A stretch of 58,374 bases of DNA, counting the filler, from Dugesia japonica (taxonomy: Eukaryota): the NCBI GenBank assembly GCA_001938525.1. It is 5 parts of 5 records of this genome, joined end to end, with 100 filler letters (N's around TTAATTAATTAA, not from the genome) between each part and the next. Parts side by side here need not be neighbours in the genome. Positions count along the whole stretch, not along the records: positions 9,639 to 19,076 come from MQRL01643409.1; positions 19,177 to 34,349 come from MQRL01598183.1; 3 more parts are not named here. One strand, written 5' to 3'. This document shows positions 8,657 through 53,519 of this stretch, in pieces (the first letter of the stretch is position 1; each line of letters begins with the position of its first letter). The position numbers and the translations under genes were made by a program. The notes beneath the pieces were generated by a model. It was not told the DNA's origin. It did not search any database and was given only the letters and a program-made list of their open reading frames with translations.

Positions 8657-9186
8657 ATGGAAACAAAAATTAATCTTGATAATAATATTAATTTTCAACT
8701 TTTATATTTGAAAAATGATGTTTTAAGAATTTCACCTTCATCTGGTTCAATTAATAATTTAATNNNNNNNNNNNNNNNNNNNNNNNNNNNNNNNNNNNNN
8801 NNNNNNNNNNNNNNNNNNNNNNNNNNNNNNNNNNNNNNNNNNNNNNNNNNNNNNNNNNNNNNNNNNNNNNNNNNNNNNNNNNNNNNNNNNNNNNNNNNNN
8901 NNNNNNNNNNNNNNNNNNNNNNNNNNNNNNNNNNNNNNNTCTTCAGATGTAGAAATAATTAATGATCCAGGAATTTCATCAACAATATTAAATTTTGTAA
9001 CAACTAGTTCAACCTATAAAAATATTCATGGAGAATTATCAGGATGAATTCCAGATACGAACAAAGGAGATTTAGATGTAGAAGGTCTTGATACCAATCT
9101 TGGTTTTTATAAAAAGAAATTTGAAGGTTATTTTCCTTTGAAAAATTTATTTGGTTTTTTACAATGTTACAACAGATTGTTATATA
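8657..9186 (+). pseudogene. Polinton major capsid protein, N-terminal fragment (second copy)
   Basis: METKINLDNNINFQ...INDPGISSTILNFVTTSSTYKNIHGELSG*IPDTNKGD...KKFEGYFPLKNLFGFLQCYNRLLY aligns directly with the MCP at 57357-58000. Contains a stop and a gap and is truncated by an insertion. Confidence 0.85.
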
Positions 9187-9638: not shown

Positions 9639-9734
9639 ATTTCTTTTTTATGGTTGTTTTTATCGTTTTATTTCTTTCTTCGGTTTGTTCACCACTTAGT
9701 GGGTGTTTCACTTCAACAAATCGCTCCCCGTCTT
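9639..9734 (-). promoter_or_regulatory. Polypurine tract (about 9724-9734) and start of 3' LTR (TG at 9718-9717)
   Basis: Minus strand reads TTCCGGGACGGAATTTAAAC-AAGACGGGGAG-CGATT-TGTTGAAG, a Gypsy-type PPT/LTR junction. The LTR is cut by the contig end. Confidence 0.65.
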
Positions 9735-9988
9735 GTTTAAATTCCGTCCCGGAATTTGCCATAGCTCGTACCCATTGCAGAACTTTTTTACCCTAATAAA
9801 ACCGACAGATTAAGGTAATTTTAAGGTCATTACCTGTCCATTGATAACACATGCAAATAAAAATTACTACATTATACATTTACTACGGTATACATCGATA
9901 CAGGTATAGTTCAGTTATTTACCAAGATCAATTAGTTATTATAGTTTAATAGTTAATTACAGTTTATTTACATCGAGCTTCCCTTGTT

Positions 9989-11143
9989 CTAATCTACTTC
10001 TTCCATTATGCTGCTCGGGATGTTGGTTCGGGGTTCAGACCCATATTTACGTAGTATTTCTGTCACGATCGAATGAGACAGGTTTCTTTTGAATTGATTA
10101 TGAGTCAATATGGAGGTTTTACTGTGTAGCTGGTTGGGCGCTGCAGGACCGAGTTGTTTACTCTGAGGTTCTTGTATTACCAATGGTACCGGTTTTCTAG
10201 NNNNNNNNNNNNNNNNNNNNNNNNNNNNNACCTGATCAATTATTTGGTTTATCCATTCCGGTATTTTGGATTTAACTGGAGTCAAACGGGGTTCCTGGAT
10301 TATTAACGGTGCGAATTGCCTTGGTATGCTGGACATTATTGGTTGCCATTCTGGAGCGGCTGGATTTAGGGTTGATTTAGGGATGTTTATGAGCCTCATG
10401 CTGGTGGAGTGTGGTAGAGCTGGTGTGACGATTGGATGAGATATAGGCCGGAACTTACTATGAGTTTGTTGTAGCTCTTAAATGGTTGAGAATTGTTCGA
10501 TCAGGTGTTGTTGTTTCTCTGCGATTTCTTTCTCTCTTTCTTGGCAGAGTGTTCTTAATTCGATAATTTCCTGTTCTAGAGCTTCTATATATTGTTGAAA
10601 GAATTCGTTCTTTTGTTGACATTCCTGGATTATGGATTCGAACTCAAAGGACAATTTTTCGATCCCAGCACGTACACCTTCTCTATTAGCTAAACTTGTC
10701 AGGAGTTGGTTTTCGGTGGAGAGGTGGTTCTTTTCAAATTGGGTGTTGAATAATTCTAATTTTAATAGTTGGGTATTTTCCCGTTCTATCGTCAGTTGGA
10801 ATTCCAATTCTTTGCATTTTGGTTCTATGTTTTCGTATTTACTTTTCCATTCGCGGGCCTGTTTTATTGCGTTTATTTTTGCTCGGTTGGCATCAATGTT
10901 GCTTTTGATATACTTTTGATGGGACTTGCAGGAACGGTTCTTAATTTCTAACGCCTGGCACGCTTTTTCTACTTGATTTTCTAATTTGTTATTATACTCT
11001 TGCAATTGCAAATTTGTGAGGGCATTGATTTTGGAATCGAGTTTTCATTTTAGTAATTCTGGTATTGTGGTCAAGGTTTGAGTTTGGGCCTGCAGTACTT
11101 GGATCTCGTGGCGTAAGTGATTAATTAAATTTTCGTTATTCAT
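9989..11143 (-). pseudogene. Retroelement accessory protein: long coiled coil plus Pro-rich tail with PAM2-like motif
   Basis: ATG at 11143 and ORFs 10478-11011 and 9989-10399 share one frame, separated by single stops. Heptad-rich N-terminal half; STLNPAAPEWQP in the C-terminal part. Confidence 0.7.
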
Positions 11144-11450
11144 TTTCTAAAATTAGAGAGAGGAATTATTATGATAAAATTTTGACAATTATAATATATA
11201 TAATTATTTACATATTTCATGTTATTTATTTAGTAATTTGCCCCTAATATTATACATTATTTACATATTTTAATCCTATTCTTTAATGAAATTTTATTCC
11301 TAGTGCCCGTCGTTTGATTAATTTTCGACACATAGGGCATTCATTTAAATTTATAGCACAGTTATAACATGTTTTGAAGTTTCCGCAGAGCAGGAATACA
11401 ACCTCTATGGTTTCGGTAAGACAGATAACACAATCGTGATCAAGCAATAC

Positions 11451-12479
11451 TCATTCTGGCTCATATTTTTTCTGAGGTTTTACTGATTGATGTGATAGTT
11501 GATATAGTTCATAGGGAGAAACTAGTTCAGTACCTCTTTCGGCGACCATCTGTTTCAGTAATTGTTGGGTGGTGAGCAGGTTTAATTTTAAAATAGATGA
11601 TAGTCGATTGGCCTGTAATTCCACTGCCATTTCTATTCTATGTTTGGACATGTTCCATTCTATTCTGCATGTGGTTGGTCTTATTGCTCCTTGGTTGACT
11701 GGGTTTAGTCCGGAGCATTTTGCTTGATGGAATAATTCGGAGGGTAAATTTTCTACTCCTTTTAATATCAAAGTTTCCCGTTGGCAAACGATGCATTTGA
11801 CGACTCGGTCATTGACCCTTTGTACTACTTATAATCCATCCAACGCCCTGTCTTTCAAGCTGGATAAGTCTATGAATGTTTTCTCTCTTTCCTCGATATT
11901 CCATCTCAGATCTTCTGGGAATGATACTACGGCTAGATTCTTTATTACTTTACAATATAACTTTTTTGTGTTTCTCCATTCTTCCTCGATTTCTAATCTT
12001 TTACCTTTGATTACTGTCGTTTGATTATTTACGTCCAAATCCAATAGAAATGGACATGTCGGGAAACATCGTTTGTGTACCTTATTTGGTACTTCGTGGC
12101 TGCCCCATTTGTATAGGATACCTTGGCAGTATATACATTTTACTCTATCTGGTCGCTCTTTGGTACCGGCATAGTAGAATTCTGATTTAGCTATGGTTTC
12201 GATAAGACCATGTAAATATTTAGGTAATTGGATTAATGATTGTTTCCTGACACTTTCGTCCCGGTACTTCTCATCGAATACTTTCATTACGCTATAACAC
12301 ACCCTTCTTCTGATAAAATTTTCCGGTGCAGCTAAGGTGTTACGATAGTGCATTATTTGTTGAGTTATCGGATTTTGCTGGATTTCTGATCGTCCATGGC
12401 TCATAACAAATAATTCGATATCCGGATCTTCCAACAATAGTCTAGCTTCTTCTATTGATAACTCAAAATTGAATTCCAT
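11451..12479 (-). pseudogene. BIR-domain (inhibitor of apoptosis-like) protein: one canonical and one degenerate BIR, no RING
   Basis: IAKSEFYYAG...DRVKCIYC-x16-H-x6-CPF is the canonical Cx2Cx16Hx6C BIR signature. The frame continues through one TAA (11829-11831) into ORF 11451-11771, giving a second BIR-like unit. Confidence 0.88.
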
Positions 12480-12699
12480 TATCTAAAAAAGGTACATTAC
12501 ATAATATTGTTTTTTATATTATTCCCATACCGTTATTTATTTAGGTGGTTTTCCCTTTTCTGACGTATATACCCATAAACATGCATATATATAAATATAA
12601 ATATTTTATTTGTTTATTTACTTATTTATTTGTTTATTCCTTTTTTATCTAGTTTTATCTATTTTATAAATTTTTTTTTTAACTTCCTCTCTCTTTGAT

Positions 12700-13374
12700 T
12701 TAGACGAAACTGACTGGGTTGTGGACACTCCGGGTCTTGAGTGTCTTAATTTCCCCTTTTTGTGAATTTACTATTTTTTTAAGGTATTCAATTTCTTTTA
12801 TCCGTTCGGACATTAGATCATGTTGTTTGGCTACCAACTCCATTGTATAGTTTTGCTTCTCTGCAATGTTTTCTAGCATTCGTCGATTTTCCACTAGTTG
12901 CTGACGACACATGAGGGTTTCTGCGTGGAGATTTTTGTTCTGAAGTTGTAGGATTTTATTTTTGAATTCCAGTTTGCACCACTCTAATGGTTTTGTTGTT
13001 ATTAAAGTTTGTATTAGTTGATTTTGATTTTGCTCCAGTTTTTCTAAACGTTGTTGAGTCCAGTGGGTTTGTGTCTTAGCACTATTCCACAATTCGCCCA
13101 TTGCTACGTTATGATTTTGCCAGATTTCGTTTATTGTTGTCTGTGTTAATAATTTGTCTGTACAGTTATTTGATTGCGAGAAATTTCTAGTAGGAGATGG
13201 GCTTGCATTAATCTGGGAATACCTGACTTCGTTTTCGGTGGTTATCTCTTTTCGATTCATTTCTAAATGTGAAACATTAATTAACTTCGTTGTTGTTTTT
13301 GTTCTATTTACATATTTGATAAGTATATTTATTTTTACATTATTTACAGGTGCTTTCCCCATATTTAACATACC
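12700..13374 (-). CDS. Retroelement accessory coiled-coil protein
   Basis: Open frame 12700-13536 with a Q/E/K/L-rich heptad C-terminal half. The 5' overlap with the env-like ORF is probably non-coding, so the true start is uncertain. Confidence 0.6.
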   Translation of the reverse strand, partial: GMLNMGKAPVNNVKINILIKYVNRTKTTTKLINVSHLEMNRKEITTENEVRYSQINASPSPTRNFSQSNNCTDKLLTQTTINEIWQNHNVAMGELWNSAKTQTHWTQQRLEKLEQNQNQLIQTLITTKPLEWCKLEFKNKILQLQNKNLHAETLMCRQQLVENRRMLENIAEKQNYTMELVAKQHDLMSERIKEIEYLKKIVNSQKGEIKTLKTRSVHNPVSFV

Positions 13375-14975
13375 ATTATACCCGGTGCCTGATAGTATCC
13401 GGCCCCGTGCACTGGTAATGTGTATGGTGGGTTTTCCAGTAAAATTCCATCGTAACTTGGTGGGGCGATAGGCAATTGCCGCTCCCTCTTTCGGTGGTGG
13501 GGTTTCTTTTTCTTTGGTTTTGAAACACATAGGCAAATAATACTAATTGATAATATTGCAATAATAACTCCTCCGATTCCTAACACATATCCGAGTTCTT
13601 GACTTCTTGTTAGTGGTAATGTGGTCGTAATCCTTATAGGGTCCATCGTAATTGTTTCTATACCTTCCTGGTGAATCGGTCTTGGCTCCATTTTGCGTAT
13701 ATTTGACATCCAGTCGTTCAGAAACTCCGCTCTTCTTACTTCCTTCCCCAGGTTTTCCGGTGTGGTGGTTGTTTGGATTTCGGTAGTAGTTGATAATTTG
13801 GGTATAGGTGTTGACATTTTGGTAATTTGCTTTTGTTTTCCTTGGGTTTTCGTTTTGGTTATTATATCCTGATTAATAACGGTGATGAACTTGAATCCGC
13901 TATATCCTCTGCTATCGAATTTCCATCCCCACTCATAGAGACTCTTGAGTGTATGTACTACTAATCTTTCTACGTTTTCTCTGAATTGCATGTGATATAT
14001 ATCCTTGTCCCTTTTTACCTGTAGAGGGTATGGTCCTGGTTGCCAATATGGTTTCCATCCTTTAAATTCTTGATTGGATATGGAGAGTATCCCATGACCT
14101 TGAATAATTGTTATGCTCTTCTGACCTAGATCTCTGCCTTTCTTATTCCACACAACCGCTCTGTACAACATGTGCTGCCATAACATGGTATGGTAAAGGT
14201 ATTCCTTCTTTGGACATATTTTAGTTAGCTCTCCTTCGTTATTTGTGGTTATCCATTCTTTGTACTTGAGGTTACTCTCCGAATAGGATAGTACAAGGTT
14301 CATTTCTTGGAGTTGTTCGATTTCGTAGTTTGCTTCATAGACCAATGGGCTCTTTTCATTTTTTAACGTTGCGTCCCAGAATTTTTCTACCAGCCAATTA
14401 CGGGCGTTAATTGACAATAGATTTACTTCNNNTGGTCCTTGACTGAAGAGTTGTATGATAATTTTCTTTTCTGCTTGATGTAGTTTAATCAACGTGCTTT
14501 TTTGGCTTTTGATTGCCGGATTTAGAGTTAGTTGCCCATAACTATAAAGTGCTTGGGTTCTTTGTTCCCTCCGCAGCCCGATATGACTTATTGTTACGGC
14601 GTGTAATTTCTTTTCCTTGATGAATATCCCATGTTCCGTTAGCACTGGTTCGTTTATCTGGCATTCTTGTCCACTGATTCTTTTTAGGATTATCATTATG
14701 GTTGCCAGTATGATTTGTCCACTGTGCATCCTATTCTGAGATACCGCTCGCGTTTGTGGTGTCGCCAAAGTAGGTAATGAGAGTCCTACTAAAATTATTC
14801 CGGTGATCCCATATAGCATTAGTGATATGGGAAGTCCTCTTTCCATATTTCTGATTAACCTCATTGTCAACCATATTAATATGCCATAGTCCCAATTTAT
14901 GTTGATTACTGCCCATAACATTAGAGATAATCTCATTATTATTTCTGCCGTATTCCTCTGTTCCTTTTCTTGCAA
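13365..14975 (-). CDS. Env-like membrane protein
   Basis: 536 aa at the env position. N-terminal hydrophobic segments, ectodomain, Thr-rich stalk, TM helix LGYVLGIGGVIIAILSISIICLCV, KPKKKK stop-transfer, cytoplasmic PPSY. No known fusogen family recognised. Confidence 0.7.
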   Translation of the reverse strand: MQEKEQRNTAEIIMRLSLMLWAVININWDYGILIWLTMRLIRNMERGLPISLMLYGITGIILVGLSLPTLATPQTRAVSQNRMHSGQIILATIMIILKRISGQECQINEPVLTEHGIFIKEKKLHAVTISHIGLRREQRTQALYSYGQLTLNPAIKSQKSTLIKLHQAEKKIIIQLFSQGPXEVNLLSINARNWLVEKFWDATLKNEKSPLVYEANYEIEQLQEMNLVLSYSESNLKYKEWITTNNEGELTKICPKKEYLYHTMLWQHMLYRAVVWNKKGRDLGQKSITIIQGHGILSISNQEFKGWKPYWQPGPYPLQVKRDKDIYHMQFRENVERLVVHTLKSLYEWGWKFDSRGYSGFKFITVINQDIITKTKTQGKQKQITKMSTPIPKLSTTTEIQTTTTPENLGKEVRRAEFLNDWMSNIRKMEPRPIHQEGIETITMDPIRITTTLPLTRSQELGYVLGIGGVIIAILSISIICLCVSKPKKKKPHHRKRERQLPIAPPSYDGILLENPPYTLPVHGAGYYQAPGIMVC

Positions 14976-15065
14976 TAGTTTCTATTTTGGTTTACTTGGT
15001 TCTATTTGCTCCGCTTCATCCGATATCCAGATCATTTTCCTTTTCTTTGCCCTTTTAGATGTTGT

Positions 15066-16498
15066 TCAGACTATTTGCTTTCTTCCCCCATCTTCTTGAC
15101 CTTGTACCTTTTTCTTTGTTGACTCTCTTTGTTTTTTCCATTTTCCGATGAGTTTTGTGATATCCGTCCTTGATGTTCTCTTTATCCTTTGCAATTCTAA
15201 TTCTGTATTTCCTGAATTTGCGGTAGGTAGACCCGTTTCTTGTTTTATTAAATTCTCTTTTTCCGGTATTAATCCTTCCCCGTTTTCTTCAAACTCAGCG
15301 TCCTCGCTGAGACTGTTCTTCTTCATCACTGTTTCCTTACCCCCTGGTAAAGGAGTTATTAGTGCTTTACTGAGCACCGTCATGGCTTGCTGTGATCGTA
15401 ATGGATAGCTATGTGATATATTTAGTTCCAAGCTTTCCGACTTACGTGGCCGACCTGGCCCTTTCCGGTCGGTCGAGGTGATCTCAGTGCTTGGTGCTGG
15501 TGTGGCTATTTCTGATGACGCCGCCTTCTTACACAGGTTGGCGTGGTATATTTTAGGTTTCTCCAATAAGTTTCCCTTTTTCCGAACCTTGAGATTAGTT
15601 TCTGTTACTTCAATCACCTCATACGGTCCTTGCCATGGTCTTTTTAATTTCGAAGTAGTGCCGACACAGATGTCTGGCAGATTGATTAATACCATGTCGC
15701 CTTTTTTAAAGGAACTTTTCATTGCTGATTTATCATGTAGATCCTTGTAGCTTTCCTGGTAGAAACCTACATTCTCCTTTGCCTGTTTCCAGATTTTCTG
15801 CATGGTTTCCTTGAAATTTGCCGCAAAATCCGTTTCGTCTTGATATTGTGTTATCGGTGGCTGAAATTCTAAGTCCATAGGCATGTTGCACTCCTTACCA
15901 TACATTAGACCGAATGGCGTATATTTAGTTGCCGGATGTACACTCATCCGATACGCGAATAAGCAAAGTTGAATATGTTTATCCCAATTATTTTGTTCNN
16001 NNNNNNNNNNNNNNNNNNNNNNNNNNNNNNNNNNNNNNTTAAATCGTTCCGTTAACCCATCCGTTTGTGGGTGGTAAGGTGAGGTTTGTAATTGGTGAAT
16101 TTTTAGGAAACTTGATACTTCGGCCAAAATGTTGCTCATAAAGTTCTTCCCTTGATCCGTCAATATTCTCTTAGGTGTACCATATCTACTGAAAATTTTT
16201 CGCACCAGGATATCTGCGATGATGGTTGCTTTCTGATTTTTCATAGGGAATGCTTCTGGAAATTTAGATAAGTAATCCATTATGGTGAGGATGTAGATAT
16301 TCCCGCTTAACGTGGGTGGTAGTGGTCCTACCACATCCATAGCAATGATTTCCATTGGTGCTGCTGGTACTGCAAGGGGTTTTAGTAGGGCTTTTACTCT
16401 TTTCCCTGTTCCTCTTCTGGCTGCACATATTTGACATTTAGCGATCCACTCTTTCACCGACTCCGTCATGTGTGGCCAGTAATATTTCTGTCTTAGTT
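15066..16498 (-). CDS. pol: Gypsy integrase with GPY/F motif and C-terminal extension
   Basis: YYWP..CxxC zinc-binding end, MDVVGPLP, TDQGKNF, SPYHPQTDGLTERF (DDE), WQGPYEV, then PGRPRK and HSYPLRS. Confidence 0.95.
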
Positions 16499-16747
16499 NN
16501 NNNNNNNNNNNNNNNNNNNNNNNNNNNNNNNNNNNNNNNNNNNNNNNNNNNNNNNNNNNNNNNNNNNNNNNNNNNNNNNNNNNNNNNNNNNNNNNNNNNN
16601 NNNNNNNNNNNNNNNNNNNNNNNNNNNNNNNNNNNNNNNNNNNTTCTTTAAATGCTCTTTCATCTTGGGCTCACATTCTAATTTTTCTAAATTGTAATTT
16701 TCCATATATTTCGTGATGGTCTTTATCTCCTCGTCGTCTATTTGCTC

Positions 16748-18826
16748 CTATTTCAATCCGTCGAAATTTCTATCTTCGGCTAAAATAAAATATACCATGC
16801 CTACTTTCTTTTCCAACAATTCGCGTAAGGTAAACGTTTCTGTATCTTTTGGTGTGTTGTCTGTAGCTTCTGGTCCGCCGATTCTGGACAGGCAATCGGC
16901 ATTGGAGTTTGCCTTACCGGTTTTAAATTTTAATAGGGGACAATAATCTTGCATTGCCAATTGCCACTTGGCCATTCTATTCCATCGCAGTGGTTTCTGN
17001 NNNNNNNNNNNNNNNNNNNNNNNNNNNNNNNNNNNNNNNNNNNNNNNNNNNNNNNNNNNNNNNNNNNNNTGTTTAGTGGCTTTTACAATAGCCATTATTT
17101 CTCGTTCTGTGGTACTGTAGTTTAATTCTGCTCCTTGAAATTTCTTGCTGAAATACGCTATTACTCTTTCTCTCCTTTGTTCATCCAATTGACTTAATAC
17201 TGCGCCCATCGCGTATCCACTAGCGTCGGTGGCTAGTATAAATGGCTTTTTAAAATCTGGGTGTACCAGAATTGGTGCTGTCAGCAATTTATCTCGTAAT
17301 GTTTCGAATGCCTGTTGTTGTTCCGGCCCCCATATGAATGCAGTGTCTTGTCTGACCAATTCTTGCATAGGTTTTGCGATTTTTGCAAAGTCCTTGATAA
17401 ATTTACGATAATAGTTTGCGAGCCCGAGAAATTCTTGTATTTTAAGCACACAATTTGGTGGTGCTAGATTTCGTATCTTCTCTGTGTTTCGCGGATCTGG
17501 TTCTTTCTCTTTATCAGATATGAGGTGGCCTAAATATGTCACCTTATTCTTGGCCCACTCGCATTTGGTAGGTTTCAGCTTTAAATTCCATTTACGCAAT
17601 CTCACGAACACACTTCGTAAATCATTGAGATTTCCTTCGAATGTTAGGGAGTAGATTAACAGATCATCGATATAGGCCATACATTGAGATATGCCGTGTG
17701 TCACGTAATTCATCATTCGTTGAAATGAAGCTGGGGCATTGGTAAGTCCAAATGGCATACGGATAAACTGATACAAATCCTTGCCTGTAGAAAAGGCTGT
17801 TTTTTCTCTGTCTTCTGGTTTGATCTTTATTTGCCAGTAACCGCTTCGTAAATCTAGTGTGGTGAATATTTTAGCATTACACACTAGTTGCAACAGTTCA
17901 TTGATATCCGGTAATGGGTATGTATCTTTCTTAGTCTGGGCATTTAATCTTCTGTAATCGATACAAAATCTTTGCGTCCCATCTTTTTTATCTACTAACA
18001 CCACTGGCGACTGCCAGGGTGAGCAGCTGGGTTCTATAACGCCGATTTTCACTAATTTGGCTGTTTCCTTATTTGCGAATTCTTTTTTCTCCACTGTCAT
18101 GGCATATGGTTTTTGTTTACATGGGGTTTCGTCTGTCAGTGGAATGGTATGCATGGTTGCGGTGCACATGCCTAATTCCTCATCGGTCCATGCAAAAATA
18201 TCTCGAAATTCCTCTAGTAATTGCAGTATCGCTTGTTTCTGATTCTCCGTCAAAGTCTCGGTTTCTACTTTAAATGTCCGATCGATTTCTGGTTCGGCGG
18301 CTACTTCGTCCCTTACGGCGGGTTCTGGTTCGATGGGTGTTAATGTGCCCATCCTGGAATTTGGCTTGATTTTGATGTCTTTTTCCGTGAAGTTAATCAG
18401 GCTGACTGGTATTTCCCCACTTTTATTTACGGTGGTTATTCCTCCTGCCGTAGGTAGTTCGTACTGGTGTGCAAATCCGTCATAAGGTTCAAAATAACTA
18501 TCTCCTTCATAAGCACTTTTGGTGCTGACCACACAATATACTTGACATCTACTTGGCACCAAAATTTCCTCTGTGGTAAATACCTCGTGATCCTTCACGT
18601 GGGTATATCCTTCCAATGATTGTAATCGTAATGTTGAGAAATTCAATATTCCATTTTTCATCAATACGGGAAGAATGTCTGTTCCTAAGATGCATTGTCC
18701 CATCATTTCTACTACAATCATATTATGTCTAATTTTATTGTCTTGGTACTCGACTTCACAGGTCAATTCCCCAAAAATTTTTAGACTACCACCATTAGCT
18801 ACATCTGCTGTAGTGTTCGTAGGCAT
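16748..18826 (-). CDS. pol: Gypsy Pol: protease C-terminus, reverse transcriptase, RNase H
   Basis: ILGTD; SPWQSPVVLVDKKDG, RFCIDYRRLN, LDLRSGYWQI, RMPFGLTNAPASFQ, YIDD; RNase H TDASG...NYSTTERE...ADCLSR. Confidence 0.97.
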   Translation of the reverse strand: MPTNTTADVANGGSLKIFGELTCEVEYQDNKIRHNMIVVEMMGQCILGTDILPVLMKNGILNFSTLRLQSLEGYTHVKDHEVFTTEEILVPSRCQVYCVVSTKSAYEGDSYFEPYDGFAHQYELPTAGGITTVNKSGEIPVSLINFTEKDIKIKPNSRMGTLTPIEPEPAVRDEVAAEPEIDRTFKVETETLTENQKQAILQLLEEFRDIFAWTDEELGMCTATMHTIPLTDETPCKQKPYAMTVEKKEFANKETAKLVKIGVIEPSCSPWQSPVVLVDKKDGTQRFCIDYRRLNAQTKKDTYPLPDINELLQLVCNAKIFTTLDLRSGYWQIKIKPEDREKTAFSTGKDLYQFIRMPFGLTNAPASFQRMMNYVTHGISQCMAYIDDLLIYSLTFEGNLNDLRSVFVRLRKWNLKLKPTKCEWAKNKVTYLGHLISDKEKEPDPRNTEKIRNLAPPNCVLKIQEFLGLANYYRKFIKDFAKIAKPMQELVRQDTAFIWGPEQQQAFETLRDKLLTAPILVHPDFKKPFILATDASGYAMGAVLSQLDEQRRERVIAYFSKKFQGAELNYSTTEREIMAIVKATKXXXXXXXXXXXXXXXXXXXXXXXXQKPLRWNRMAKWQLAMQDYCPLLKFKTGKANSNADCLSRIGGPEATDNTPKDTETFTLRELLEKKVGMVYFILAEDRNFDGLK

Positions 18827-18835
18827 TATGTTTTT

Positions 18836-19063
18836 TTATTCGGTTATTGCAATTTCATCGATAGATAACAGTGATATGGTGTCTCCGGTATCCACTAGAG
18901 CGGTTATGGGTCGACCGTTAATTTTAATGATAATAGTTAATACGGGTCCACCATTGAGACCTGCGCATACTACATTCGATGAGATATTACCGGCATTTGT
19001 TTGTGTTTTGCTTTTCCATCTGGGTTCTCTCTCCTGGAACCGTATCCAGTCATCCTTTATCAT
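18836..19063 (-). pseudogene. pol: Retropepsin active-site segment, frameshifted from the rest of Pol
   Basis: INGRPITALVDTG catalytic motif. The frameshift lies at an A-run near 18830-18838. Confidence 0.85.
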
Positions 19064-20189
19064 GGTGGTTGTATTGNNNNNNNNNNNNNNNNNNNNNNNN
19101 NNNNNNNNNNNNNNNNNNNNTTAATTAATTAANNNNNNNNNNNNNNNNNNNNNNNNNNNNNNNNNNNNNNNNNNNNAAATGGATAAATCTGATACATCAT
19201 TGAATAATTATTATTGCTGATTTAGCAAAAAATGAATCAATTTGATCCATAATTATTATTATTATTATTTTCTCTTAAAAATTATTTATATATTTACAAG
19301 AAAACCTTTTTTAGAAGTTAAATTGATTAATACGAGAACTCCTACACATAGAATTGTATTATATTTAATAATTTTTTGTCGAAAGTAATTCATTCTTTGA
19401 ATATTTTATTGAGGTAATAATTTTTTTTAACCCTCTCTTTTGATATATATAATTATAATAAGCTACATAATTAATTTATACGGGATATAAGTTACTTCTA
19501 CTTGTTGGGTGGAATCGACATAAGTTTTTACCCTTTTAAATATTTATAAGACTTATTGAGATAAATACTGTTACCTTCAACGATGTATAATAAGTAATAA
19601 AACCATAATAATTTATTTATGTCATTTTATCCATTCGAACATCCAACAAAATTATATTCGATACATTATGTACTTATTATAGTGACAAAATATTTTCAAA
19701 TTACCGAAAACTGAATTTTGAATAAATGCTATATGGAAATTTTATAAATTGCCAAAAAAGGAATTGGAATACCGTTCCAATACGCTGGGTTGAATACAGA
19801 CATTTATTTTTATTTGATTTAACTGTACGATTTCTAATATTATGTGACAATCCTTTTTCAATATATTTTTATTTACAATATTATTTTACCACAAACGTAA
19901 ATTGTTTATGAAATTTTCACTGAGAATTTTATGATAATAATTTATAATAACAATTAATGTAAATTTTAATTGAATGGAAAATTCTACAATCCATAATAAA
20001 AATTTTAGGTACTTGTCTTGAAAATTCATCAAAATAATCATTTAATTTAAATTTAATTGTGTTATTGATATTCAGAAAGTCAAGTTATTGTAGCATTGTT
20101 TATTCTTGCAAATTTCAACCAAAATGAATTTTTCGAAATTAATCCAGCTGGTGCATGATACGCATAGTAGCATTTCGTTTTTTTAATAG

Positions 20190-21288: not shown

Positions 21289-23700
21289 AGTAGGAGGATA
21301 CTAGCGCACGATACCACCATGTGTGCGAACCCCCCCCCATTAATGATGTAATTTGTGCGATTATCTGTAATTTGATTGTTTAATCTATGATGTAATTACA
21401 TCANCGGAAATTTATCCATCAATTAAATTTATTATGTAATTTTTAATTTTTAATTTTTTCAGGCTTTTTAGGCGGTAAAAAAATTTTCCTGCGGTTTTAG
21501 TTGGCAAAAAATTTTCCTGCGGTTTTAGTTGGCAAGAAATTTTCAAGGCTTTTTAAGCAGCAATTTTAGGATTTTTAAGCTGGAGTATTTTTTAGGCTTT
21601 TTAGGTGGCAAAAATTTTTTCAAGTTTTTTTTAGGTTTGGAATTTATTCGGTGAAATCGAATGAGGTCAATTTTTGATTGGTTCAGGTGAATTTGGTTGA
21701 CAATTTGCTCAGTGAGGTCGAATGAGGTCAATTTTCGGTTGGTTCAGGTGAATTTAGTCCAACATTTCCTCGGGATTGCTCGGTTAGGATAATTTTTTTT
21801 TGGGTGATTTGGTCGAATATTTTCTCGGGATCGAGCGGTTTGGGTAATTTTTGTGTGATTTGGTCAATTATTTTCTTAGTAATGGTTAATTTGGTTCATT
21901 TTTGTGCGATTTGGATGAAATTTCCCTCGGGAATAGTCAATTTGGGTCAGTTTTTGTACAATTTGGTCAATTATTTACTCGGTTTGGGTAATGTTGGTCA
22001 ATTAATTACTAGATATGGACGAACTTGGTTAATTATTTGCTCACAAGGGTAATTTTTAGGTGAATTTGGTCAATTATTTCCTTGGTAATGGTTAACTTGA
22101 TTAATTTTTTGGGTGAATTTGGTTAATTATTTAATCGGGATTGATTAGTTAGGGTAATTTTAGGGAAATTCGGTCAATTTGGGTCAGTTTTGGACGATTT
22201 GGTCAAATATTTGCTCACAGTGGTCAGATTTTGGTTGACAGTGCTCAGATTTTGGATGATTCGGTCAATTATTTTCTCAGTATGGATAAACTTAGTGGTT
22301 GGTTTTCGGTGGTTTTTGGAAAATGGTCAATTATTTGCTCACAAGGGTAATTTTTAGGTGAATTCGATCAATTATTTCCTCGGGTATGGTTAATTTGGGT
22401 CAGTTTAGGACAATTTTGTCAATTGTTTACCAAGTTTAGGTAATATTGGTTAATTACTTACTCACAAGGGACAGTTTAAGGTGAATTTGAGTGATCATTT
22501 TCTCGGGTTTAGTCAGCTTTGGTTGAATTTTAAGGAAATTCATTATTAAAGTCAAATTTGTTTAAATTTTAAAGTTTTTAAAAATTTTTAAGGGAATGTT
22601 TTATAGGAATTCTGGCAAACCTTTCATGTTGTTTAAATAATATTAAAATTTAAAATTTCTTGAATGAAATTTTCATGGGAGTCTGGGTGAACAGTCTAAA
22701 TTTTTGAAAAAATATGTTCTATATCTCAGATTTCATAGATTTTTATACCAAACTGCTGAGAATTTTACGGCGATCCTTTTACACAAACAAACATTTTTCG
22801 AAAACATTTTCCTTCTCAAATATGTTAAGAAAGTTTCTATTCGATAGAGAACGTTTCGTTGATTCCAAATATGTTAACCTAAAATNGCCAAAGTTAATAC
22901 TCGATGAAATAAATGGGATTTTGTGGTGAAAAATCTGAAATTTTAAATTTTTGTACTCAATTTTTTCTGTGAACATAACTCGTATGGTTTCAAATTTAGT
23001 ATTATTTCACTCAGGAGGTAAATGTGACTGTGCAAAGTTTAAATATCGTCTGGAGAAAAATGCTTCCTAACGAATATGTAAAACTGACCTCCCGGATTAT
23101 GGTAAGGAACCATCCATTAAGGACGTCCCTAAAAAATAGCACTTTTTGACATCCCCTCCCTCTTGCCACTTGTCCATTTCTAGGGCCCCCTGTTGTCCTT
23201 ATGTGCACCTTTGTGGAGACCCCCTCCCCCCATTCCGAGAAGACGTCCTTAATGGATGGTCCCTAAATTCTTCGAAAACATAACAAGTACCTCAAAATTT
23301 ATCGACTTCTATAGGAACTTTTACGATGAGTACGAATAACGCAGTTAAAAATCATCAAACCTCAAAGATAAAAAGTTATATTGAAAAAACAAGTACTTTA
23401 TTTAGAGTCACCAAGGAACATAAAAATATGATAATTTATTCGGTAAGGTCAATTTTGGGTAGTTTTTTAGATGAATTTAGATGAAATTTTACTCTTCACC
23501 TGTCATCAATTATCAGAACTCTTAACTAATGCTAAGACTTCAGAACTCTGAACTCTGTACACATAATGTTAATACTCTATACTCTGCCCACTAGATTTCA
23601 GTTATCAGTGCTCTGCTTACAGTACACTGATTTTTAGTTATCATTGGTGTTCTCACTTTTTACAAGTCTTTACTTTTGACTATCCCTTCAAATCGTCAGT
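21289..23700 (+). mobile_element. Polinton-like left terminus and long subterminal arm with degenerate tandem repeats
   Basis: Starts AGTAGGAGGATACTAGCGCA. TTGGTCAATTATTT-type repeat array at 21650-22500. Inverted homology to about 29750-31689. Confidence 0.55.
23106..23263. mobile_element. PIF/Harbinger-type MITE (158 bp)
   Basis: 22-bp TIRs GG(A/G)ACCATCCATTAAGGACGTC with one mismatch, flanked by TAA target duplication. Confidence 0.85.
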
Positions 23701-34800: not shown

Positions 34801-35335
34801 AACTTAGTGTAAATCCTTCGTCAAGTTTATAAATACAAGTTTATGTAATACAAAATAATACAAATAGATTACAANNNNNNNNNNNNNNNNNNNNNNNNNN
34901 NNNNNNNNNNNNNNNNNNNNNNNNACGAGATATAAACTTCATCAGTATGTGGAATTATCTTTTTAACTTTACCTGGATATTTACAAATTAATTCTTTAAA
35001 AAACAAATGATTATCGTAACCAGATGCATTGTGAAAATAAAAAGATATAAATAAAATTTTTATTGATTTATCTTGTAAATTACATTTTGAATGAGAATAT
35101 CTTCTTAATTCCCCATTGAAATGATAGTGATCTAAAACTAGATTTTCAGTTATTGGTTTGTCACAATATCCACATTTTAAGTGAGCTTTCTCACTTTCCT
35201 CAAGTTTCGGAACTTCACCTTAAAATCTTTCGATTAATTTATTTTCTTTAATATCTTGTGTAACTTAGTGTAAATCCTTCGTCAAGTTTATAAATACAAG
35301 TTTATGTAATACAAAATAATACAAATAGATTACAA
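34801..35335. repeat. 74-bp identical direct repeat (34801-34874 and 35262-35335)
   Basis: AACTTAGTGTAAATCCTTCGTCAAG...TAGATTACAA occurs twice. The first copy runs into a gap. Confidence 0.85.
34925..35260 (-). pseudogene. Protein-primed PolB fragment (second copy)
   Basis: GEVPKLEESEKAHLKCGYCDK...VLDHYHFNGELRRYSHSKCNL...FHNASGYDNHLFFKEL...KIIPHTDEVYIS aligns with 49335-49630. Confidence 0.88.
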
Positions 35336-36713: not shown

Positions 36714-37008
36714 TTACTTATTAAGTTTATTTATTTTTTTTACTCTATGTAGAGCATTTTCTATCATAGTTAGCTCAAATTTCTTCCATTGTTGAGCTGT
36801 CTCCATAGAATTGAAGGGCACTTCTTCATAACTATTCTTCAGCATATTAACTGTAGTGCTCACTAAACTGGCTGGCTTTCTAAGATTGAGTGCATATGCT
36901 AATCCTTCCACTATTTTTGTAACCTTTTTTGTGGTTCCCATCTGATATTTATATTCAGGTGTTCTTCGTTTTTTCCTTTCTAGGAGTGCATATCTAGCAA
37001 TTGAACCT

Positions 37009-37047
<39 letters not shown>

Positions 37048-37423
37048 GTTATCATTTTTTACCTGATTCATAGCATATATTCCTTTTTCTATATCCTTTT
37101 CCAATAAATTCCTATATTCTAGGATTTCACATTAATCTCTCGAATTCTTTTTGATGATATTTGTGCTCCGGAATCGCATTTATAATTCTTTCGGAAATTA
37201 GATATCTGCAATCATACAGATATGTGTCCATGTTGTTAGCGAGAATTGTGTTCAGGTTGAACGGGTACTTGTTGCTGGTTTCTGATTGCTGGTTTGCTAT
37301 TCTTTGAATATTGTCCCTCTCCTCCTTCATTTTATTTTCAATACTCACAGGTTGTATATCTACTATAGAATTCGACGGACCATCATCGAACAGTTTAATT
37401 TCAGGAGTTCTCATATTTGACAT
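36714..37423 (-). pseudogene. Hypothetical protein(s), probably one frameshifted gene, with (AAT)n poly-Asn tract
   Basis: Adjacent co-oriented ORFs 37127-37423 and 36714-37055 with an (ATT)n microsatellite at about 37011-37042. Confidence 0.35.
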
Positions 37424-37604
37424 TGCAAAATTAGGAAATAAATGAATTATGACATTTAGTTATATACTATATTACCTAATCAATAATAATATTGATCTGT
37501 ATTGCATGTCTTGCATTTATGCTGTTAATGTAATAATTGTATATATACATAATTTCAGTGATTATGAGACAAAATATAAACAAAACAAAGTTAGTACATT
37601 TATT

Positions 37605-38057
37605 TTAATATACATAAGTCTTAATCATATTTACTTCATCATAAAAATCTAAATTCTTCAAATCAGTTAATACTATTTTCCTTGAATGGAAAACATTCAC
37701 ACACAGAGAATTAAATTTAATTAATCGAAGACCAGGAAATATTTCCGGTTCATACATACAATTTGTATTTTCAGCCGATTTCTGTAAATTTATTGTCATC
37801 TTCAAGCAAGCTGTCACTGTCAATGATTGTATTTCATCAACAAATATTTTGAATGGAAATTCCTTTCTGTCTAATGGCTTTTTACAACCCATTATTCTAT
37901 ATTTTTTACTTGGAAATATGATTATTGTATACTCTAGATACTTTAATACACATTGTTTCAGCTTATAACCAAATCGAAGACCACCTAAGTTTTCTGTCGT
38001 ATGTCCTTTATAGTTTATATTCAATAACATTACAAAAAAACAGTGACTTATTTCCAT
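37605..38057 (-). CDS. Minimal, divergent TATA-binding-protein-like protein
   Basis: Repeat 1 end TIIIFPSKKYRIMG. Repeat 2 IQSLTVT...INLQK...MYEPEIFPGLRL...VNVFHSRKIVLTDLK, compare TBP YEPELFPGL...IF.SGK.VLTGAK. 150 aa, intronless. Confidence 0.8.
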   Translation of the reverse strand: MEISHCFFVMLLNINYKGHTTENLGGLRFGYKLKQCVLKYLEYTIIIFPSKKYRIMGCKKPLDRKEFPFKIFVDEIQSLTVTACLKMTINLQKSAENTNCMYEPEIFPGLRLIKFNSLCVNVFHSRKIVLTDLKNLDFYDEVNMIKTYVY

Positions 38058-41830: not shown

Positions 41831-41999
41831 TTCATTAAAATAAGATAAGGCTTCGATCAAAACAAAACAAAATTTATTTCTAAAAAAAGTTCAAATTTTG
41901 TTCTGTTTTGATCGAAGCCTTATCTTATTTTAATGAAATCTCAAATCCGATCAATGGTTAAGTCCAACAATTATTCTCACAATAATTGTAATTATAAAA
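41831..41999 (+). mobile_element. Double-hairpin mini-element copy 3 (most complete, 169 bp)
   Basis: 45-bp inverted arms (41831-41875 and 41893-41937, one mismatch). 3' stem ACAATTATT-CTCAC-AATAATTGT. TSD TAATAATAG. Interrupts an Asn-codon-rich tract. Confidence 0.9.
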
Positions 42000-43800: not shown

Positions 43801-44556
43801 CAAATTGGTAAGGTCCAAAGGTTAGATCGATAGTTTCCGCATGACTGAACTTACCAGCAAAAAAGAAATCGTTCCGAAGCTTGCCTTTACTCTCACGATA
43901 TAAAGTCGAACAATTTCTTTAACGTGTCGTGATATGTGATGAAATATATATTCGTTTCGATAATCGTAGGGGTTCATCTTTAGTTTGATAAACGTGAATT
44001 ACCAAAACAGAGTTTAAAGCTAAAATTCATCAAAAAAGATAATATTATCTGTTTGGTGGTCTAGCGCTGATAGAACAGCTTTTTAATAACCGGTCAATAC
44101 ATTACGGATGTCTACTGCAACCAATGGGACAACATGGTGAGATTGCTTAAGATTAAGCAGCCGAGATTAGTCATTAGAGACAGGCTAATTTTCTTGCAAG
44201 ACAACGCTCGACATCATGTTAACCTACCAACGCTACTAAAACTGCTGGGTTTTGAATTGGAAACTATCATTCACTGTATTCACCAGACATTGTTCCAACA
44301 CTATCATTTATTCCAGGCATTAGAAAACTTCTTAGTGGAAATATTATTGGAATCTGAAGAGACTGCAAAAAACTTCTTTCGTGATTTTAATTGCTACTAT
44401 CACCAGACATCGCTGCTTAAATAATCAAGTGGCAATTAAGATGTCAAAATTATGTCATTAGTTTTGATGCATATTCGAATAAATGTATTTTTGCTTGTTA
44501 AATAATAATCCGAAATTTTGATTAAAAATTCGACATTTCATACTTAATAATCTAAT
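43801..44556 (+). mobile_element. Mariner transposon, 5'-truncated and decayed
   Basis: GKVQRLDR*FPHD (WVPHEL motif), VVICDE, FLQDNARHH, YSPDIVP, YHLFQAL. TIR-like 3' end AAAATTCGACATTTCATACTTAATAATCTAA. Confidence 0.9.
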
Positions 44557-48093: not shown

Positions 48094-48166
48094 ATTTTAA
48101 TGAAATCTCAAATGCAATCAATGGTTAAGTCCAACAATTATTCTCACAATAATTGTAATTATACAA
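48094..48166 (+). mobile_element. Double-hairpin mini-element copy 5 (3' part, contig start)
   Basis: ATTTTAATGAAATCTCAAATGCAATCAATGGTTAAGTCCAACAATTATTCTCACAATAATTGTAATTATA directly after the gap. Confidence 0.85.
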
Positions 48167-51100
48167 TTGATTATGATCTAGAAATTCGTGACATCTTTAA
48201 AATGTATAAGGAGTATGAACACTTGGAAAGATCAATAAAAATGATTAATGAATTTCAAAAAGAAATTCTCGAAATTATTACCAAGTATTTTAATTATGGT
48301 AAAAAGATTATTGTCCGAATGAGTGTCAATGGTAATTATAATAAAGAAGTAAACGGTGAAAATGTTGAAAATATTTTTAATTCGTATTCAAATAATAAAC
48401 AATTTACTATTGCAAGTGAAATAAATGATGGAGTTGTTGATATTATAAATCAACTTCAAAGATTCATGGAAGATGAAGATAGAAACGAATCTGGATGGAA
48501 TTTAAATTATATAGTTGATTATAAAATTGAACTTTCTAAATATCAATCTTTAGCTGGAGCAACTTATCAAAAATTACTATTTTCAAAACCAGGTGTAATT
48601 AATATTCAAAACAAAGGTGAAAAATATTTTTTATTTCAATTTTAAATCACAAATATAGACTTAATAATCCAACTAGATTTGTAAAATATATTCCTCATTT
48701 ATCTGAATTAAAAACCAACGAAATTAAATTTCCAGTAAATATTTATGATGTTAAAAAATTTGAAAAATTAAATGATTGGAAAATAAATGTATTTACTGTA
48801 ACTGATTCCAAAATAATTGAACCTTTAATATATATTACATTAAGAAACTAAACCAAAACCTGAGCAGAATAAATGTAATTTATTAGTTTATACAAAACCT
48901 AGCGGGCCCCACCATTTTATTTTATGTAGAGATGTACAAGTATTTTTTACAAACAAAAAGAAATAAAAATTATTTATGTATTAGATGTATGAATTGTTAT
49001 CAAAGTAAAGATTTATTAACAAAACATCAAAAGGAATATATTAAATCATGAAATATCAAATATTACATTTCTAAAACATAATGATTATTATTTTCAAAAT
49101 TATTATTACAAAAATAAAATATCTTTAGTAGTTTATGGTGATTTTGAAAGCTGGACTAATAATAACCCCAACTAGCCCCACACAAAGAAACAAAAACCTT
49201 TATCACTTGGAATTTATGTAGTAAGTAAGCATCCACATTTAATGAAAAATGAAATATTCATGAACAGTTTTTTGAATTTTTAAATCAACTAAATAATGAA
49301 TTAAAAGATGTAAAAGAAAATCAATTAATATAAGATATTTAGGTGAAGTTCCTGAACTTAGAGAAAGTGAGCAAGCTTGCCTAAAATATAAATATTGTGA
49401 TAAATAGATGGGGTTTGAAAATCCAGTAATTGACCATAACCATTTCAATGGTGAATTTAGAGGTTATTTTCATTCAAAATGCAATTTACATGCCAAATCA
49501 ATAAAAAATTTATTTTTACTTTTTTATTTTCATGTTTCAGGTTATGATTATCATTTTTTTTCAAAGAATTAATTAGTATCCAAGTAAAATTAAAAAAATA
49601 ATTCCACATACAGATGAAGTTTACATTTCATTCCAATATGTAAACATTAGATTTTTGGATTCAGTAAGAAAGTAACCTTTTACATCAATTGAGAAAATGG
49701 GTGAAATGTTAAATTATTCTTGACAATATAATCATTTAAGAGCATTTAATCCTGCTCCAAAGAAAATATCATTTCCTTATGAATATGTAAAAGGAAATGA
49801 TATTAATCAAGTAATTGAATTATTAAAAAGTAACCATATTCCATCAAAAGAAGATTTTAATAATAAACTAAAACTAAAAAGAATATCAGAAAAGGATTAT
49901 AATGAATTTTTACAAGATTTAGAAAAACACAATAATTTATTTGATTATATGATGTATTTTATGAAACTAGATGTAATTATTTTAGTAGATTTTTTTGAAA
50001 ACTTCAGAGAAAAAATAGATCCTAGTTATTGTTATTCTGCACCAGAATTAACGTGGGCTGCAGGAACTAAATTTACCCAAGTAAAATTAAAATATGCACA
50101 AAAAAACGTATGATAGATTTATTAAAATAGAAAGAGGAGTTAGAGGTGAATATTCAGGTGTTTGTAGAGAAAGACAGGTCTTTTCAAATAATCAAAAATC
50201 AAATACTAGATTTGGAAGAACTAGACAATTAAATAAAGCACAAGTAGGTGATATATTATTTTCATTTATTAAAAATAAAACTGGTTCCTTCGGTAATGAC
50301 TTTAAAGGAGAGCAAATAAATAAAAAAGAAGAAACATTTTTAAAATATTTAGATGAAAATAGTCTATATGCATCTTGTATGACAAAACTGTACCAACAGG
50401 TGAAATCTATGAATGTCTTCCAGAGTCAGGATTTAAATTATACACCAGCAACAGACAAAATAAATTATATTTATGAAGTGGATTTAGAATATCCACTTGA
50501 AATTCATGAGAAAACTAAATATTTTCCTTTAGCACCAGATCCAATAAATATAACAAATGAAATGTTAAGTCCTTATCAATTATCATTTCAGAAAAAGTTG
50601 AGTAAAAAGAAATATTAAATTAACATTAAATCGATTTGATAAACAAAATTATATTATTCTAGGAAAAACACTAGATTTATACAAATCTTTAGGGATGAAA
50701 AATATAAAAAATCCATTCAAAATATAAAATGCCAACAAAACCATGGTTAAAGGATTACATTCAATTTAATATAATTCAAAGAAATGAAGCCAAACGAAAT
50801 AATAATGTTTTTGGAGATTATTTCTTTAAATTATTAAATAATGCTTTCTATGGAAAAACTTTAGAAACATAAGAAATAGATGTAATGTTGAAATTGTAGA
50901 TAATAATAGAGATTATCACAAATTCGCATGAAAAATTTATTTTAAATCTAGTAAAATATTTAGTTATAAAGAAACTTCGGAAACTCCTTTCAGTCGCTAG
51001 CGAATGCGAGCTCATGGACACTCGCAACCTTAGGAAGCATAATCTGCAGCAATTCATCTTTATAAAACAAGTTTAAAATATAATAAATTTCCATACATTG

Positions 51101-51696
51101 TTTTCATTATTTTAGAATATGCAAAATAAGTAATTTATGACTTTATTTATAATCAATTAGACAAAGAAATACCAAACAAGTATAAAATTCATTATAGTGA
51201 CACAGATTCTATCTTTGTAGAAATAATTGGTCAAGAAACTTTAAATAAAGTAGCAAGTTTATTAGGTAACAATTTATTTTAAATGAAAGATGAAAAACCA
51301 AATAATGAAATAGTTAAATGTAATTTTATTAAAGCAAAAAGTTATATTATTCAAGATTTTAAAGCAGGTAATCACAACGGACCCAAAAATATAGAAACAA
51401 AACATAAATGAGTTTCTAAAACTAATTAAATACGAATGGAAGAATATGATAAAGTTTTACATAATCCCAAAGAAATAATTTATGGAACTAATCATAGTTT
51501 AAAATCTCATAAACATAAAATAGAATTAGTTGAACAAAAAAAGATTGCTTTAACAGGATACGATGATAAAAGATTAATAGAAGACATTGGAATAAGAACT
51601 TGGCTACAAGGAAATAAATTTAAATGTGAAGTTTGTAATCAGTGGTATTTAAGGTTGGATAAATTAAAACGAAAATTAGAATGTACTTTATTATAA
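48167..51696 (+). pseudogene. polB: Protein-primed family B DNA polymerase (Polinton type) with endonuclease VII-like insert
   Basis: ESGW..YQSLAGATY..VINIQN; ExoI VYGDFES; VIDHNHFNGEFRGYFHSKCNL; ExoII FHVSGYD; RFLDS; FPYEY; motif A YLDENSLY; motif B KLLNNAFYGK; motif C YSDTDS; KIALTGYDDKR. Many stops and frameshifts. Confidence 0.96.
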
Positions 51697-51729
51697 AAAA
51701 AGATTGTGGGCGCGCGCACAAATTATTTA

Positions 51730-52999: not shown

Positions 53000-53119
53000 A
53001 TCTGAATTAATTTTATTTAATTTTTCAGGAGAACAATAACTAGATAAATTATTAATCTCTTTTGTTAGTTTTGTAATTTTTCTAATCTCTTGTTTAACTT
53101 GTATATTTTTTAAATCGGT

Positions 53120-53368
53120 TTAAAAAGATTCACTAATAGTTTGTGTTAGCTCATTTAATTTATTTATTTTAATAATTAAATCGGCTTTATCTCTAATCCA
53201 CGATTTATTATTCTTCGTTAGCATTAGCGCATTTTCCAAAAGCTGTTTAATATCAATATTTTGATTTTTCAATTGATTTTTTAAATCAGAAACTTGTTTT
53301 TGTAATTTAGTAAAATATTTTAAATTTATAGCATCTAGTTCATTTTTTGGTTCATTAATAATTTTCAA
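53120..53368 (-). pseudogene. Hypothetical viral protein fragment (coiled coil)
   Basis: NEPKNELDAINLKYF followed by heptads. Confidence 0.35.
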
Positions 53369-53519
53369 ACAAGTAATCGAATATCCACTTTGATTAACAA
53401 ACCTTTTACCATTGTTTACAGATTCTAATTTTAATTTAGCAGTAACATGTTTTAATACTTGTGTATTATTTTGACTATTTAAAGTTTCTACAAATTTATT
53501 TATTTATTTTCTATACAGA

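Follow-up and report, generated by a model that had tools for sequence, protein, structure and literature searches.

A decayed multi-copy Ty3/Gypsy element of Dugesia japonica with an orphan membrane ORF, an IAP and two coiled-coil-like ORFs as its probable 3′ cargo

Do the four open reading frames (ORFs) that follow the integrase of a Ty3/Gypsy retrotransposon in the Dugesia japonica assembly GCA_001938525.1 truly belong to that element, and, if they do, how would they be expressed and what might they do for it? The stretch concerned occupies positions 9639-19076 of the window (the whole 58,374 nt of DNA analyzed, in which five contigs are joined end to end, and to which all coordinates refer). 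Our answer, to which we assign a probability of about 0.65, is that it represents a decayed copy of a multi-copy Ty3/Gypsy element whose pol frame continues into an orphan membrane protein, whose three accessory genes would be expressed by spliced messages of their own, and whose probably captured IAP might keep the host cell alive.

Layout of the element and membership of its cargo

All of the parts named here lie on one contig, continuous over 9.4 kb and framed by joiners (44 N, TTAATTAATTAA and 44 N), the flanking contigs being unrelated. The contig holds that half of a Ty3/Gypsy element which runs from pol to the 3′ end, and reads, on the minus strand, protease (PR), a weak dUTPase-like segment, reverse transcriptase (RT), RNase H, integrase, membrane ORF, a coiled-coil-like ORF (CC1), IAP, ORF4, polypurine tract (PPT) and the start of a long terminal repeat (LTR; Table 1). 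Pfam and motifs together give the PR-RT-RNase H-integrase order of the Ty3/Gypsy group (RVP, 3.2e-4, 21.4 bits against a cut-off of 20.7; RVT_1, 5e-33; RT_RNaseH_2, 6e-34; rve, 2e-13; Integrase_H2C2, 8e-8; a TDAS motif in pol), the dUTPase-like segment falling under its cut-off (E 0.012, 15.8 bits against 22). In the PDB, RT-RNase H is nearest to Ty3-type enzymes (4ol8, E 1.8e-82; Ty3-G Gag-Pol 7q5b, E 4.9e-82; the next matches at 1.8e-51 and weaker), and the PPT (9734-9724) followed by a TG-initiated 3′ LTR (TG at 9718), both of which the initial annotation had proposed, likewise fits a Ty3/Gypsy element, the LTR being present over 80 nt only.

Table 1. Features of the element at 9639-19076, in minus-strand order.
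Feature	Position	Strand	Remarks
Element under study	9639-19076	minus	one contig, all named parts on it
Aspartic protease	18836..19075	minus	LVDTG at 18898; in-frame stop 18836-18838; begins at contig end
dUTPase-like segment between PR and RT (weak)	18350..18496	minus	
RT and RNase H	16748..18000	minus	YIDD at 17674; in-frame stop 16748-16750
Integrase (H2C2, core, GPY at 15629) and C-terminal extension	15066..16498	minus	stop 15066-15068
Orphan membrane ORF, 523 aa from ATG 14936	13365..14984	minus	integrase frame; stop 14982-14984 ahead of it
Spacer 0 (104 nt)	13261..13364	minus	TGTAAATAATGTA 16 nt after stop, AATAAA, second TGTAAATA, TTTAG 2 nt before ATG
CC1, 186-aa coiled-coil-like orphan ORF	12700..13260	minus	frame open further upstream, ATGs 13530 and 13362
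Spacer 1 (220 nt)	12480..12699	minus	five AATAAA; TTTTTTAG 3 nt before ATG
Intronless IAP, 398 codons	11283..12479	minus	BIR and RING; stops 11829-11831 and 11451-11453
Spacer 2 (139 nt)	11144..11282	minus	TGTAAATAATGTA 17 nt after stop, AATAAA, second TGTAAATA, CTAATTTTAG 3 nt before ATG
ORF4, 384 codons	9989..11143	minus	stops 11045-11047 and 10478-10480
3′ untranslated region	9735..9988	minus	TGTAAATA 16 nt 3′ of ORF4 stop
PPT AAGACGGGGAG	9724..9734	minus	GGGACGGAA just before
Likely 3′ LTR, first 80 nt (TGTTG...)	9639..9718	minus	TG at 9718; ends with contig; exact start inferred

The copy at hand is a dead one, a pseudogene with eight in-frame stops, and the four co-oriented ORFs that had been claimed 3′ of the integrase are indeed found (14936-9989) once those stops are translated as X, as was done for the ORF calls. 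One correction to the initial annotation is due: the membrane ORF stands in the same frame as the integrase, two stops behind it (15066-15068 and 14982-14984 in the frame map), and this shared frame is new here. The contig starts inside the protease and holds no gag, 5′ LTR or target-site duplication; no second LTR was found within the window, and an Rfam search gave 0 matches. Five N gaps interrupt the contig, with reading frames assumed across three of them (14430-14432, 10201-10229 and 16499-16643), whereas the stretches from 14429 to 10230 and from 15998 to 14433 are gap-free. At the 3′ end, reads of diverged relatives in three RNA runs (10.5-13.6 million reads scanned, i.e., 6-25% of each run) align solely between 9701 and 9758, which supports 9734-9718 as a conserved PPT/LTR junction, and the LTR piece at 9639-9718 is the deepest bin in three of four contig runs, a weak indication. 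A candidate LTR start at 9972 (AGAACAAGGGAAG...TGTAAA) was dropped, since the same motif trails other ORF stops and the stretch common to the relatives is 9701-9758.

That the cargo lies inside the element, which the initial annotation had proposed in describing a complex Gypsy element, is in our view very probable, given the continuous contig, the shared frame, the shared base composition and the multi-copy state of the cargo itself. Its GC content (0.35-0.40) and AT skew (0.21-0.36) are near those of pol (0.40-0.41 and 0.23-0.31), the neighbouring contigs standing at 0.25-0.27 and about 0. In a DNA run (X1), 34,818 contigs fall on the element over 30 of 30 bins, mostly 90-99% alike, the cargo being repeated like pol, and a run under another organism label (X8, organism B) adds 1,408 contigs over 30 of 30 bins of 9639-14429. 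All 18 of the listed indel sites relative to other copies are in spacers, the untranslated region (UTR) or the LTR, with a cluster in spacer 0 (13261-13364), non-coding sequence making up 813 of 4,791 nt (two rows of the source listing are left out of this tally). At stops 15068, 14984, 10480 and 11451 other copies have a different sequence in the contigs of all runs, and at 11045 in those of three of four (the remaining three stops lie outside the 80 listed of 1,123 rows), and the stops look private to the dead copy, the family apparently keeping its frames, the integrase-membrane fusion included. Against this picture it must be said that AT-rich spacers are indel-prone regardless; that a tally of listed substitutions by codon position came out neutral (23/23/20, no third-position bias) and shows no protein selection; and that none of the listed contigs, which are pieces under 400 nt, spans both pol and cargo of a further copy.

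An assembly chimera, or unrelated neighbouring DNA, would be the obvious other source of such a cargo, and the five N gaps, the best run having only 0.37 of the cargo's words, and a dip in the depth of other copies at 14364-14678 (889 versus 15,631 and 55,879 beside it in run X1) could all be held in its favour. The gap-free stretches, the frame running on across the integrase-membrane junction, the uniform composition, the repeated spacer grammar described below and the family-wide repetition nevertheless make it highly improbable. The dip itself may mean that the membrane ORF varies most in its N-terminal ectodomain, or that filtered reads are missing.

Spacer signals and the expression they suggest

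The spacers between the cargo ORFs carry regular signals that are new and had been overlooked in the initial annotation. On the sense strand, TTTAG-N(0-4)-ATG occurs three times in 9.4 kb, and all three sites are the starts of CC1, IAP and ORF4, each of which begins 2-3 nt after TTTAG (joint chance 4e-7 from the spacer composition, calculated post hoc). The motif TGTAAATA occurs five times, each time within a spacer or the 3′ UTR (five was reached in none of 5000 shuffles, whose mean was 0.35). Its first copies trail the stops of three of the four ORFs, by 16 nt for the membrane ORF, 17 nt for IAP and 16 nt for ORF4, with AATAAA close behind, and the 13-mer TGTAAATAATGTA is found twice in identical form (0 of 100 shuffles); both the TTTAG and the TGTAAATA patterns were picked after inspection. 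As RNA, TGTAAATA would presumably be a UGUA 3′-end element or a Pumilio site. Such regularity of acceptor-ATG and post-stop signals points to separately processed messages, and we consider it probable, judging from the sequence, that CC1, IAP and ORF4 are each made from a spliced message of their own.

The course of events would then be that full-length RNA yields Gag and a Pol-membrane polyprotein cut after the integrase, whereas splicing onto the TTTAG sites as 3′ acceptors, most likely in cis and from a donor of the 5′ leader off the contig, in the way retroviruses form subgenomic RNAs, would give three messages for CC1, IAP and ORF4 that the post-stop UGUA/AAUAAA block would end or protect. 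In a cell with an active element, the BIR-RING protein might then dampen death driven by caspases; ORF4, for its part, might bind poly(A)-binding protein (PABP) through its PAM2-like motif.

Several observations weigh against separate spliced messages. Spacer 1 is without an exact TGTAAATA; the antisense strand has three TTTAG-ATG sites too, which leaves only the position of the sense ones unusual; and the start of CC1 was chosen partly for the TTTAG motif, the indels of other copies at 13285-13356 supporting that start. The initial annotation had advised a search for subgenomic or spliced transcripts, and neither splice joints nor transcripts were seen in the three RNA runs, which held 1, 38 and 12 reads, 41 of the 51 under 90% alike, so that the family is near-silent there. 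Among the 24 listed of 690 rows from runs X9-X11, whose RNA nature is a guess and whose coverage of the spacers is what DNA would give, no loose end lies at the acceptors.

Two other modes of expression would make use of the same signals. In operon-like processing, the 3′-end signal of a spacer (UGUA plus AAUAAA) would be followed some 70-100 nt on by a trans-splice acceptor, and the host's spliced-leader machinery would yield single-gene messages; AATAAA does lie upstream of TTTAG-ATG in all three internal spacers (104, 220 and 139 nt), the post-stop motif is fixed at 16-17 nt after three stops, the last ORF's among them, and the spacing is like that of nematode operons. An internal poly(A) site is also described, in the available part of 10.1101/2025.03.14.642691, as used by Drosophila MDG1-group elements. 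AATAAA is, however, common in A-rich spacers (20 on the minus strand), the genomic RNA would not survive efficient internal cleavage, and no leader-bearing read was seen in the RNA runs, all of which makes this mode improbable; no description of an operon-type expression strategy for LTR elements was found in the literature searched. Even less probable are internal promoters, in which TGTAAATA would serve as a DNA site, TATA-like or Forkhead-like, for unspliced transcription of the ORFs: foamy viruses and Oikopleura Tor elements do have internal promoters, and second copies of TGTAAATA precede the ATG of CC1 by 52 nt and that of ORF4 by 69 nt, but the motif also lies behind the last ORF at an equal distance from the stop, with no gene downstream, and the TTTAG before all three ATGs would be left unexplained. 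Cis-splicing from the leader is our first choice over both spliced-leader trans-splicing and internal promoters, and the three acceptor positions, together with the post-stop motifs, amount to exact predictions for RNA data.

The encoded proteins and other features of the window

By BLAST, the integrase is 48-52% identical to three metagenome proteins (P0002-P0004), with which it forms a clade (four rows, SH-aLRT 99) in a quick tree of 65 rows that keeps 64 of 78 candidate rows and is without a Burro sequence. It falls outside the errantivirus clade: the errantivirus-like integrases L002 and L003 are in another clade of the same tree, and the contigs bearing them, two unrelated ones, were, besides one weak match, what the integrase search of viral contigs returned, the RT search of viral contigs giving no match. 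P0004 has a C-terminus running in frame from the integrase into a signal-peptide-like hydrophobic stretch, hinting that an integrase-membrane fusion may be common to the P0002-P0004 clade.

The membrane ORF had been taken for an env-like protein, of which its topology is what can be retained. By hydropathy, two segments are hydrophobic (aa 34-52 and aa 451-469), and the ORF also has a stalk rich in Thr, a basic stretch and PPSY at 492, while no relative was found in Pfam, the PDB, PHROGs or 1.84 billion representatives, nor among 5,744 word candidates of a 5.8-billion protein set (near lengths only), nor, for aa 170-523, in Atlas. Single-sequence AlphaFold models were unusable (pLDDT 31.5 for the membrane ORF and 32.7 for a second model). 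Were it a true envelope fusogen, and the family an infectious endogenous retrovirus, one would expect the type I topology, the stalk, the basic stop-transfer stretch, the PPxY tail and the env position that are seen, and the close integrase relative P0004 also enters a hydrophobic segment after its integrase. The ORF has, however, no sequence or Pfam match to any env or fusion protein, those of the baculovirus F type included, 0 N-glycosylation sequons, two ectodomain Cys and a heptad periodicity of z 0.2, and occupants of the env position need not be envelopes: that of Cer1 is an RNA-export factor (PMC10309623, seen in part) and several rotifer "env" ORFs are enzymes (PMC5408684, likewise). 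A fusogen is, on these grounds, unlikely. As an orphan without a relative in billions of proteins, the membrane protein may be a new type of surface protein.

The IAP named in the initial annotation is real, its BIR (Pfam 1e-11, 45.6 bits against a cut-off of 22.9) also finding BIR matches in the PDB and following the pattern C-x2-C-x16-H-x6-C (C115, C118, H135, C142), and its C-terminal RING matching zf-C3HC4_3 (1.5e-10, 41.1 bits against 27). A decayed second BIR is possible (2 of 1000 shuffles), although without a PDB match. Searches with the protein, its stops as X, found one generic mollusc IAP among 2,920 candidates and none in viral contigs, and a metagenome scan gave one relative (L001) among 48 pattern matches. 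L001 shares 42 of 71 residues (59%) with IAP aa 35-105, pre-BIR segment included; the match starts in the segment after TTTAG and stops at FYYIG, followed by GTAAGT, and the 269 nt beyond are closed by stops in every frame and match nothing further. Positions 626-901 of L001 are likely an exon of a cellular IAP from an AT-rich eukaryote, with a pre-BIR segment in common with the cargo IAP. Bounded by TTTAG and GTAAGT, this exon suggests that the cargo IAP is likely an intronless, retro-captured host gene whose composition has since converged on that of the element. Two facts temper the case for a captured, working IAP: L001 is a single 1,170-nt contig that fixes neither the direction nor the donor of the capture, and the RING keeps seven of eight ligands, Asn replacing the His ligand in this copy. 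An anti-apoptotic role for the protein is, on balance, somewhat favoured, whereas host manipulation by the cassette, as read by the initial annotation, is conjecture.

The coiled-coil and PAM2 proteins of the initial annotation were recovered in part, as two coiled-coil-like regions and a PAM2-like motif in the ORF4 frame, the latter under the Pfam cut-off. CC1 has a modest 3.5-residue periodicity (z 2.1) and its Atlas search gave leads only; ORF4 has an N-terminal coiled-coil-like region (z 2.9) and then a Pro-rich tail. A strict heptad score for coiled coils was not above shuffles, and homology between CC1 and ORF4 was not detectable (E 0.072). The PAM2-like LNPAAPEWQP of ORF4 (10369-10340) lies in the same frame as its coiled-coil-like region, scores 13.9 bits against a cut-off of 20 (Pfam PAM2, E 0.047, on a 47-aa piece), recurs in 1 of 20,000 shuffles as a pattern set post hoc, and has Trp where the PAM2 consensus usually has Phe. 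A PABP-binding regulator, as once suggested for this locus, is not established by such a score, and binding of PABP by ORF4 through this motif can be put forward only tentatively.

Elsewhere in the window, an intronless divergent TBP-like ORF (37605-38057, minus strand; Pfam TBP 5.6e-10), possibly a viral or mobile TBP, is followed on the same strand by two orphan ORFs (37127-37459 and 36714-37058), on a contig that also has a Maverick-like polymerase fragment. Decayed Maverick/Polinton-like remains occupy 48094-57773, with a Pox_A32 ATPase (56046-56681; 5.2e-7) and, recognized by eye on the plus strand, polymerase-B-like pieces, and 57455-57992 is repeated inverted at 8666-9186. At 34869-35219 (minus strand) there is an Endonuclease VII-like Zn fragment (Pfam E 0.002, under the cut-off), which we take to be of the kind found in Maverick polymerases. 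An array of a satellite with a unit of about 51 bp lies at 21625-22530 and 15-448, in opposite orientation on two contigs; a Mariner-like transposase fragment (FLQDNARHH) was read by eye at 44074-44424 (plus strand), with no Pfam match at E 0.05; and a 45-nt near-perfect inverted repeat with a 17-nt spacer occupies 41831-41937 and belongs to a repeat that has copies at 35620, 45766 and 48094.

Comparison with known systems

The caution in the initial annotation that novelty be weighed against the Burro elements was well placed, as BIR/RING cargo and a dUTPase between PR and RT are described for them (PMC6431247; PMC13465017; the articles cited in this section were available in part, and what is said of them holds for those parts). 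Burro elements are over 30 kb, with long LTRs, one giant ORF1, BIR, RING-type, Smc, ankyrin, BCL2 and MATH motifs, a PR-RT dUTPase, and an env upstream of PR, between it and a BCL2-like region (PMC6431247); according to PMC13465017, which cites Lee et al. 2026, the BIR-RING protein of Burro1 (B-IAP) is reported to protect planarian stem cells against caspases. Burro1/GYPSM1 and Burro-2 to -4 of Schmidtea mediterranea are like the present element in being Gypsy with BIR and RING cargo, a coiled-coil motif and a membrane protein fused in frame to the polyprotein; where they have their dUTPase-like region, between PR and RT, the present element has its weak dUTPase-like segment. It could be argued that a planarian Gypsy family already in the catalogues, of the Burro type or another, has its 3′ half here, and that ours is a further member of it; PMC6431247 does mention decayed fragments of Burro in Dugesia japonica, and the window is without everything upstream of PR.

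This is, however, unlikely. In PMC6431247 the Burro domains share one 4,873-aa ORF1, in which a class I-like env precedes PR, whereas here the membrane protein follows the integrase and is without a known relative, and the IAP, 2.6 kb behind the integrase in a three-gene 3′ cassette, has its own spacer and start, as opposed to the BIR and accessory domains that the article places within the ORF1 polyprotein. Ankyrin, BCL2 and MATH were not found by Pfam in this half, and PMC8532177 calls BURRO1 active and highly abundant, in contrast to the near-silence of this family in three runs. BURRO1 and Gypsy8 primers gave 0 matches in the window, a result that, for the two BURRO1 primers, is uninformative with half an element. 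A bolder proposal, that a Burro-independent Gypsy lineage built an operon out of a pol-fused surface protein and three trans-spliced accessory genes, with a captured IAP and a PABP-binding regulator, is likewise improbable, more so than a place among the Burro families; were it true, this would be a second, convergent IAP capture by an animal retrotransposon.

Juno, Vesta and TelKA of bdelloid rotifers have a dUTPase between PR and RT, where the present element has its weak dUTPase-like segment, and captured post-pol ORFs, coiled-coil and transmembrane types included, typically expressed from spliced messages; they usually have one ORF3 (env, GDSL, DEDDy, CC or TM), and the available text of PMC5408684 has no IAP, PAM2 or four-gene array. 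Cer1 of Caenorhabditis elegans is similarly of the Gypsy group, its polyprotein being long and the orphan ORF in its env position also expressed by splicing, but its CERV is a nuclear RNA-export factor and not a membrane protein, and no IAP cassette appears in what was available of PMC10309623. Insect errantiviruses (L002, L003) have a Gypsy pol and then a type I membrane protein, their env-like ORF being, however, separate and Cys- and heptad-rich and their integrase 36% identical and of another clade. As regards the IAP, baculovirus IAPs have two BIRs and a RING, and these as well as the cellular NAIP, cIAP and XIAP share the compact intronless BIR-(BIR)-RING layout, from which the cargo IAP differs in that its second BIR is a remnant at best and its closest relative, L001, is a cellular-looking exon and not a viral gene.

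No published description of the layout of this element was found in a search to which Grohme 2018, Lee 2026 and Repbase were external, the available parts of PMC11410931, PMC13238120 and PMC6238403 adding nothing on architecture. IAP cargo in a Gypsy element is already known from Burro1, and what is new is the separate-ORF layout. If borne out, a second layout, in which the IAP is a gene of its own, has an apparently intron-bearing relative that can be traced and comes with regular signals for expression, would mean that retrotransposons capture death regulators repeatedly and are able to run multi-gene cassettes in the manner of complex retroviruses.

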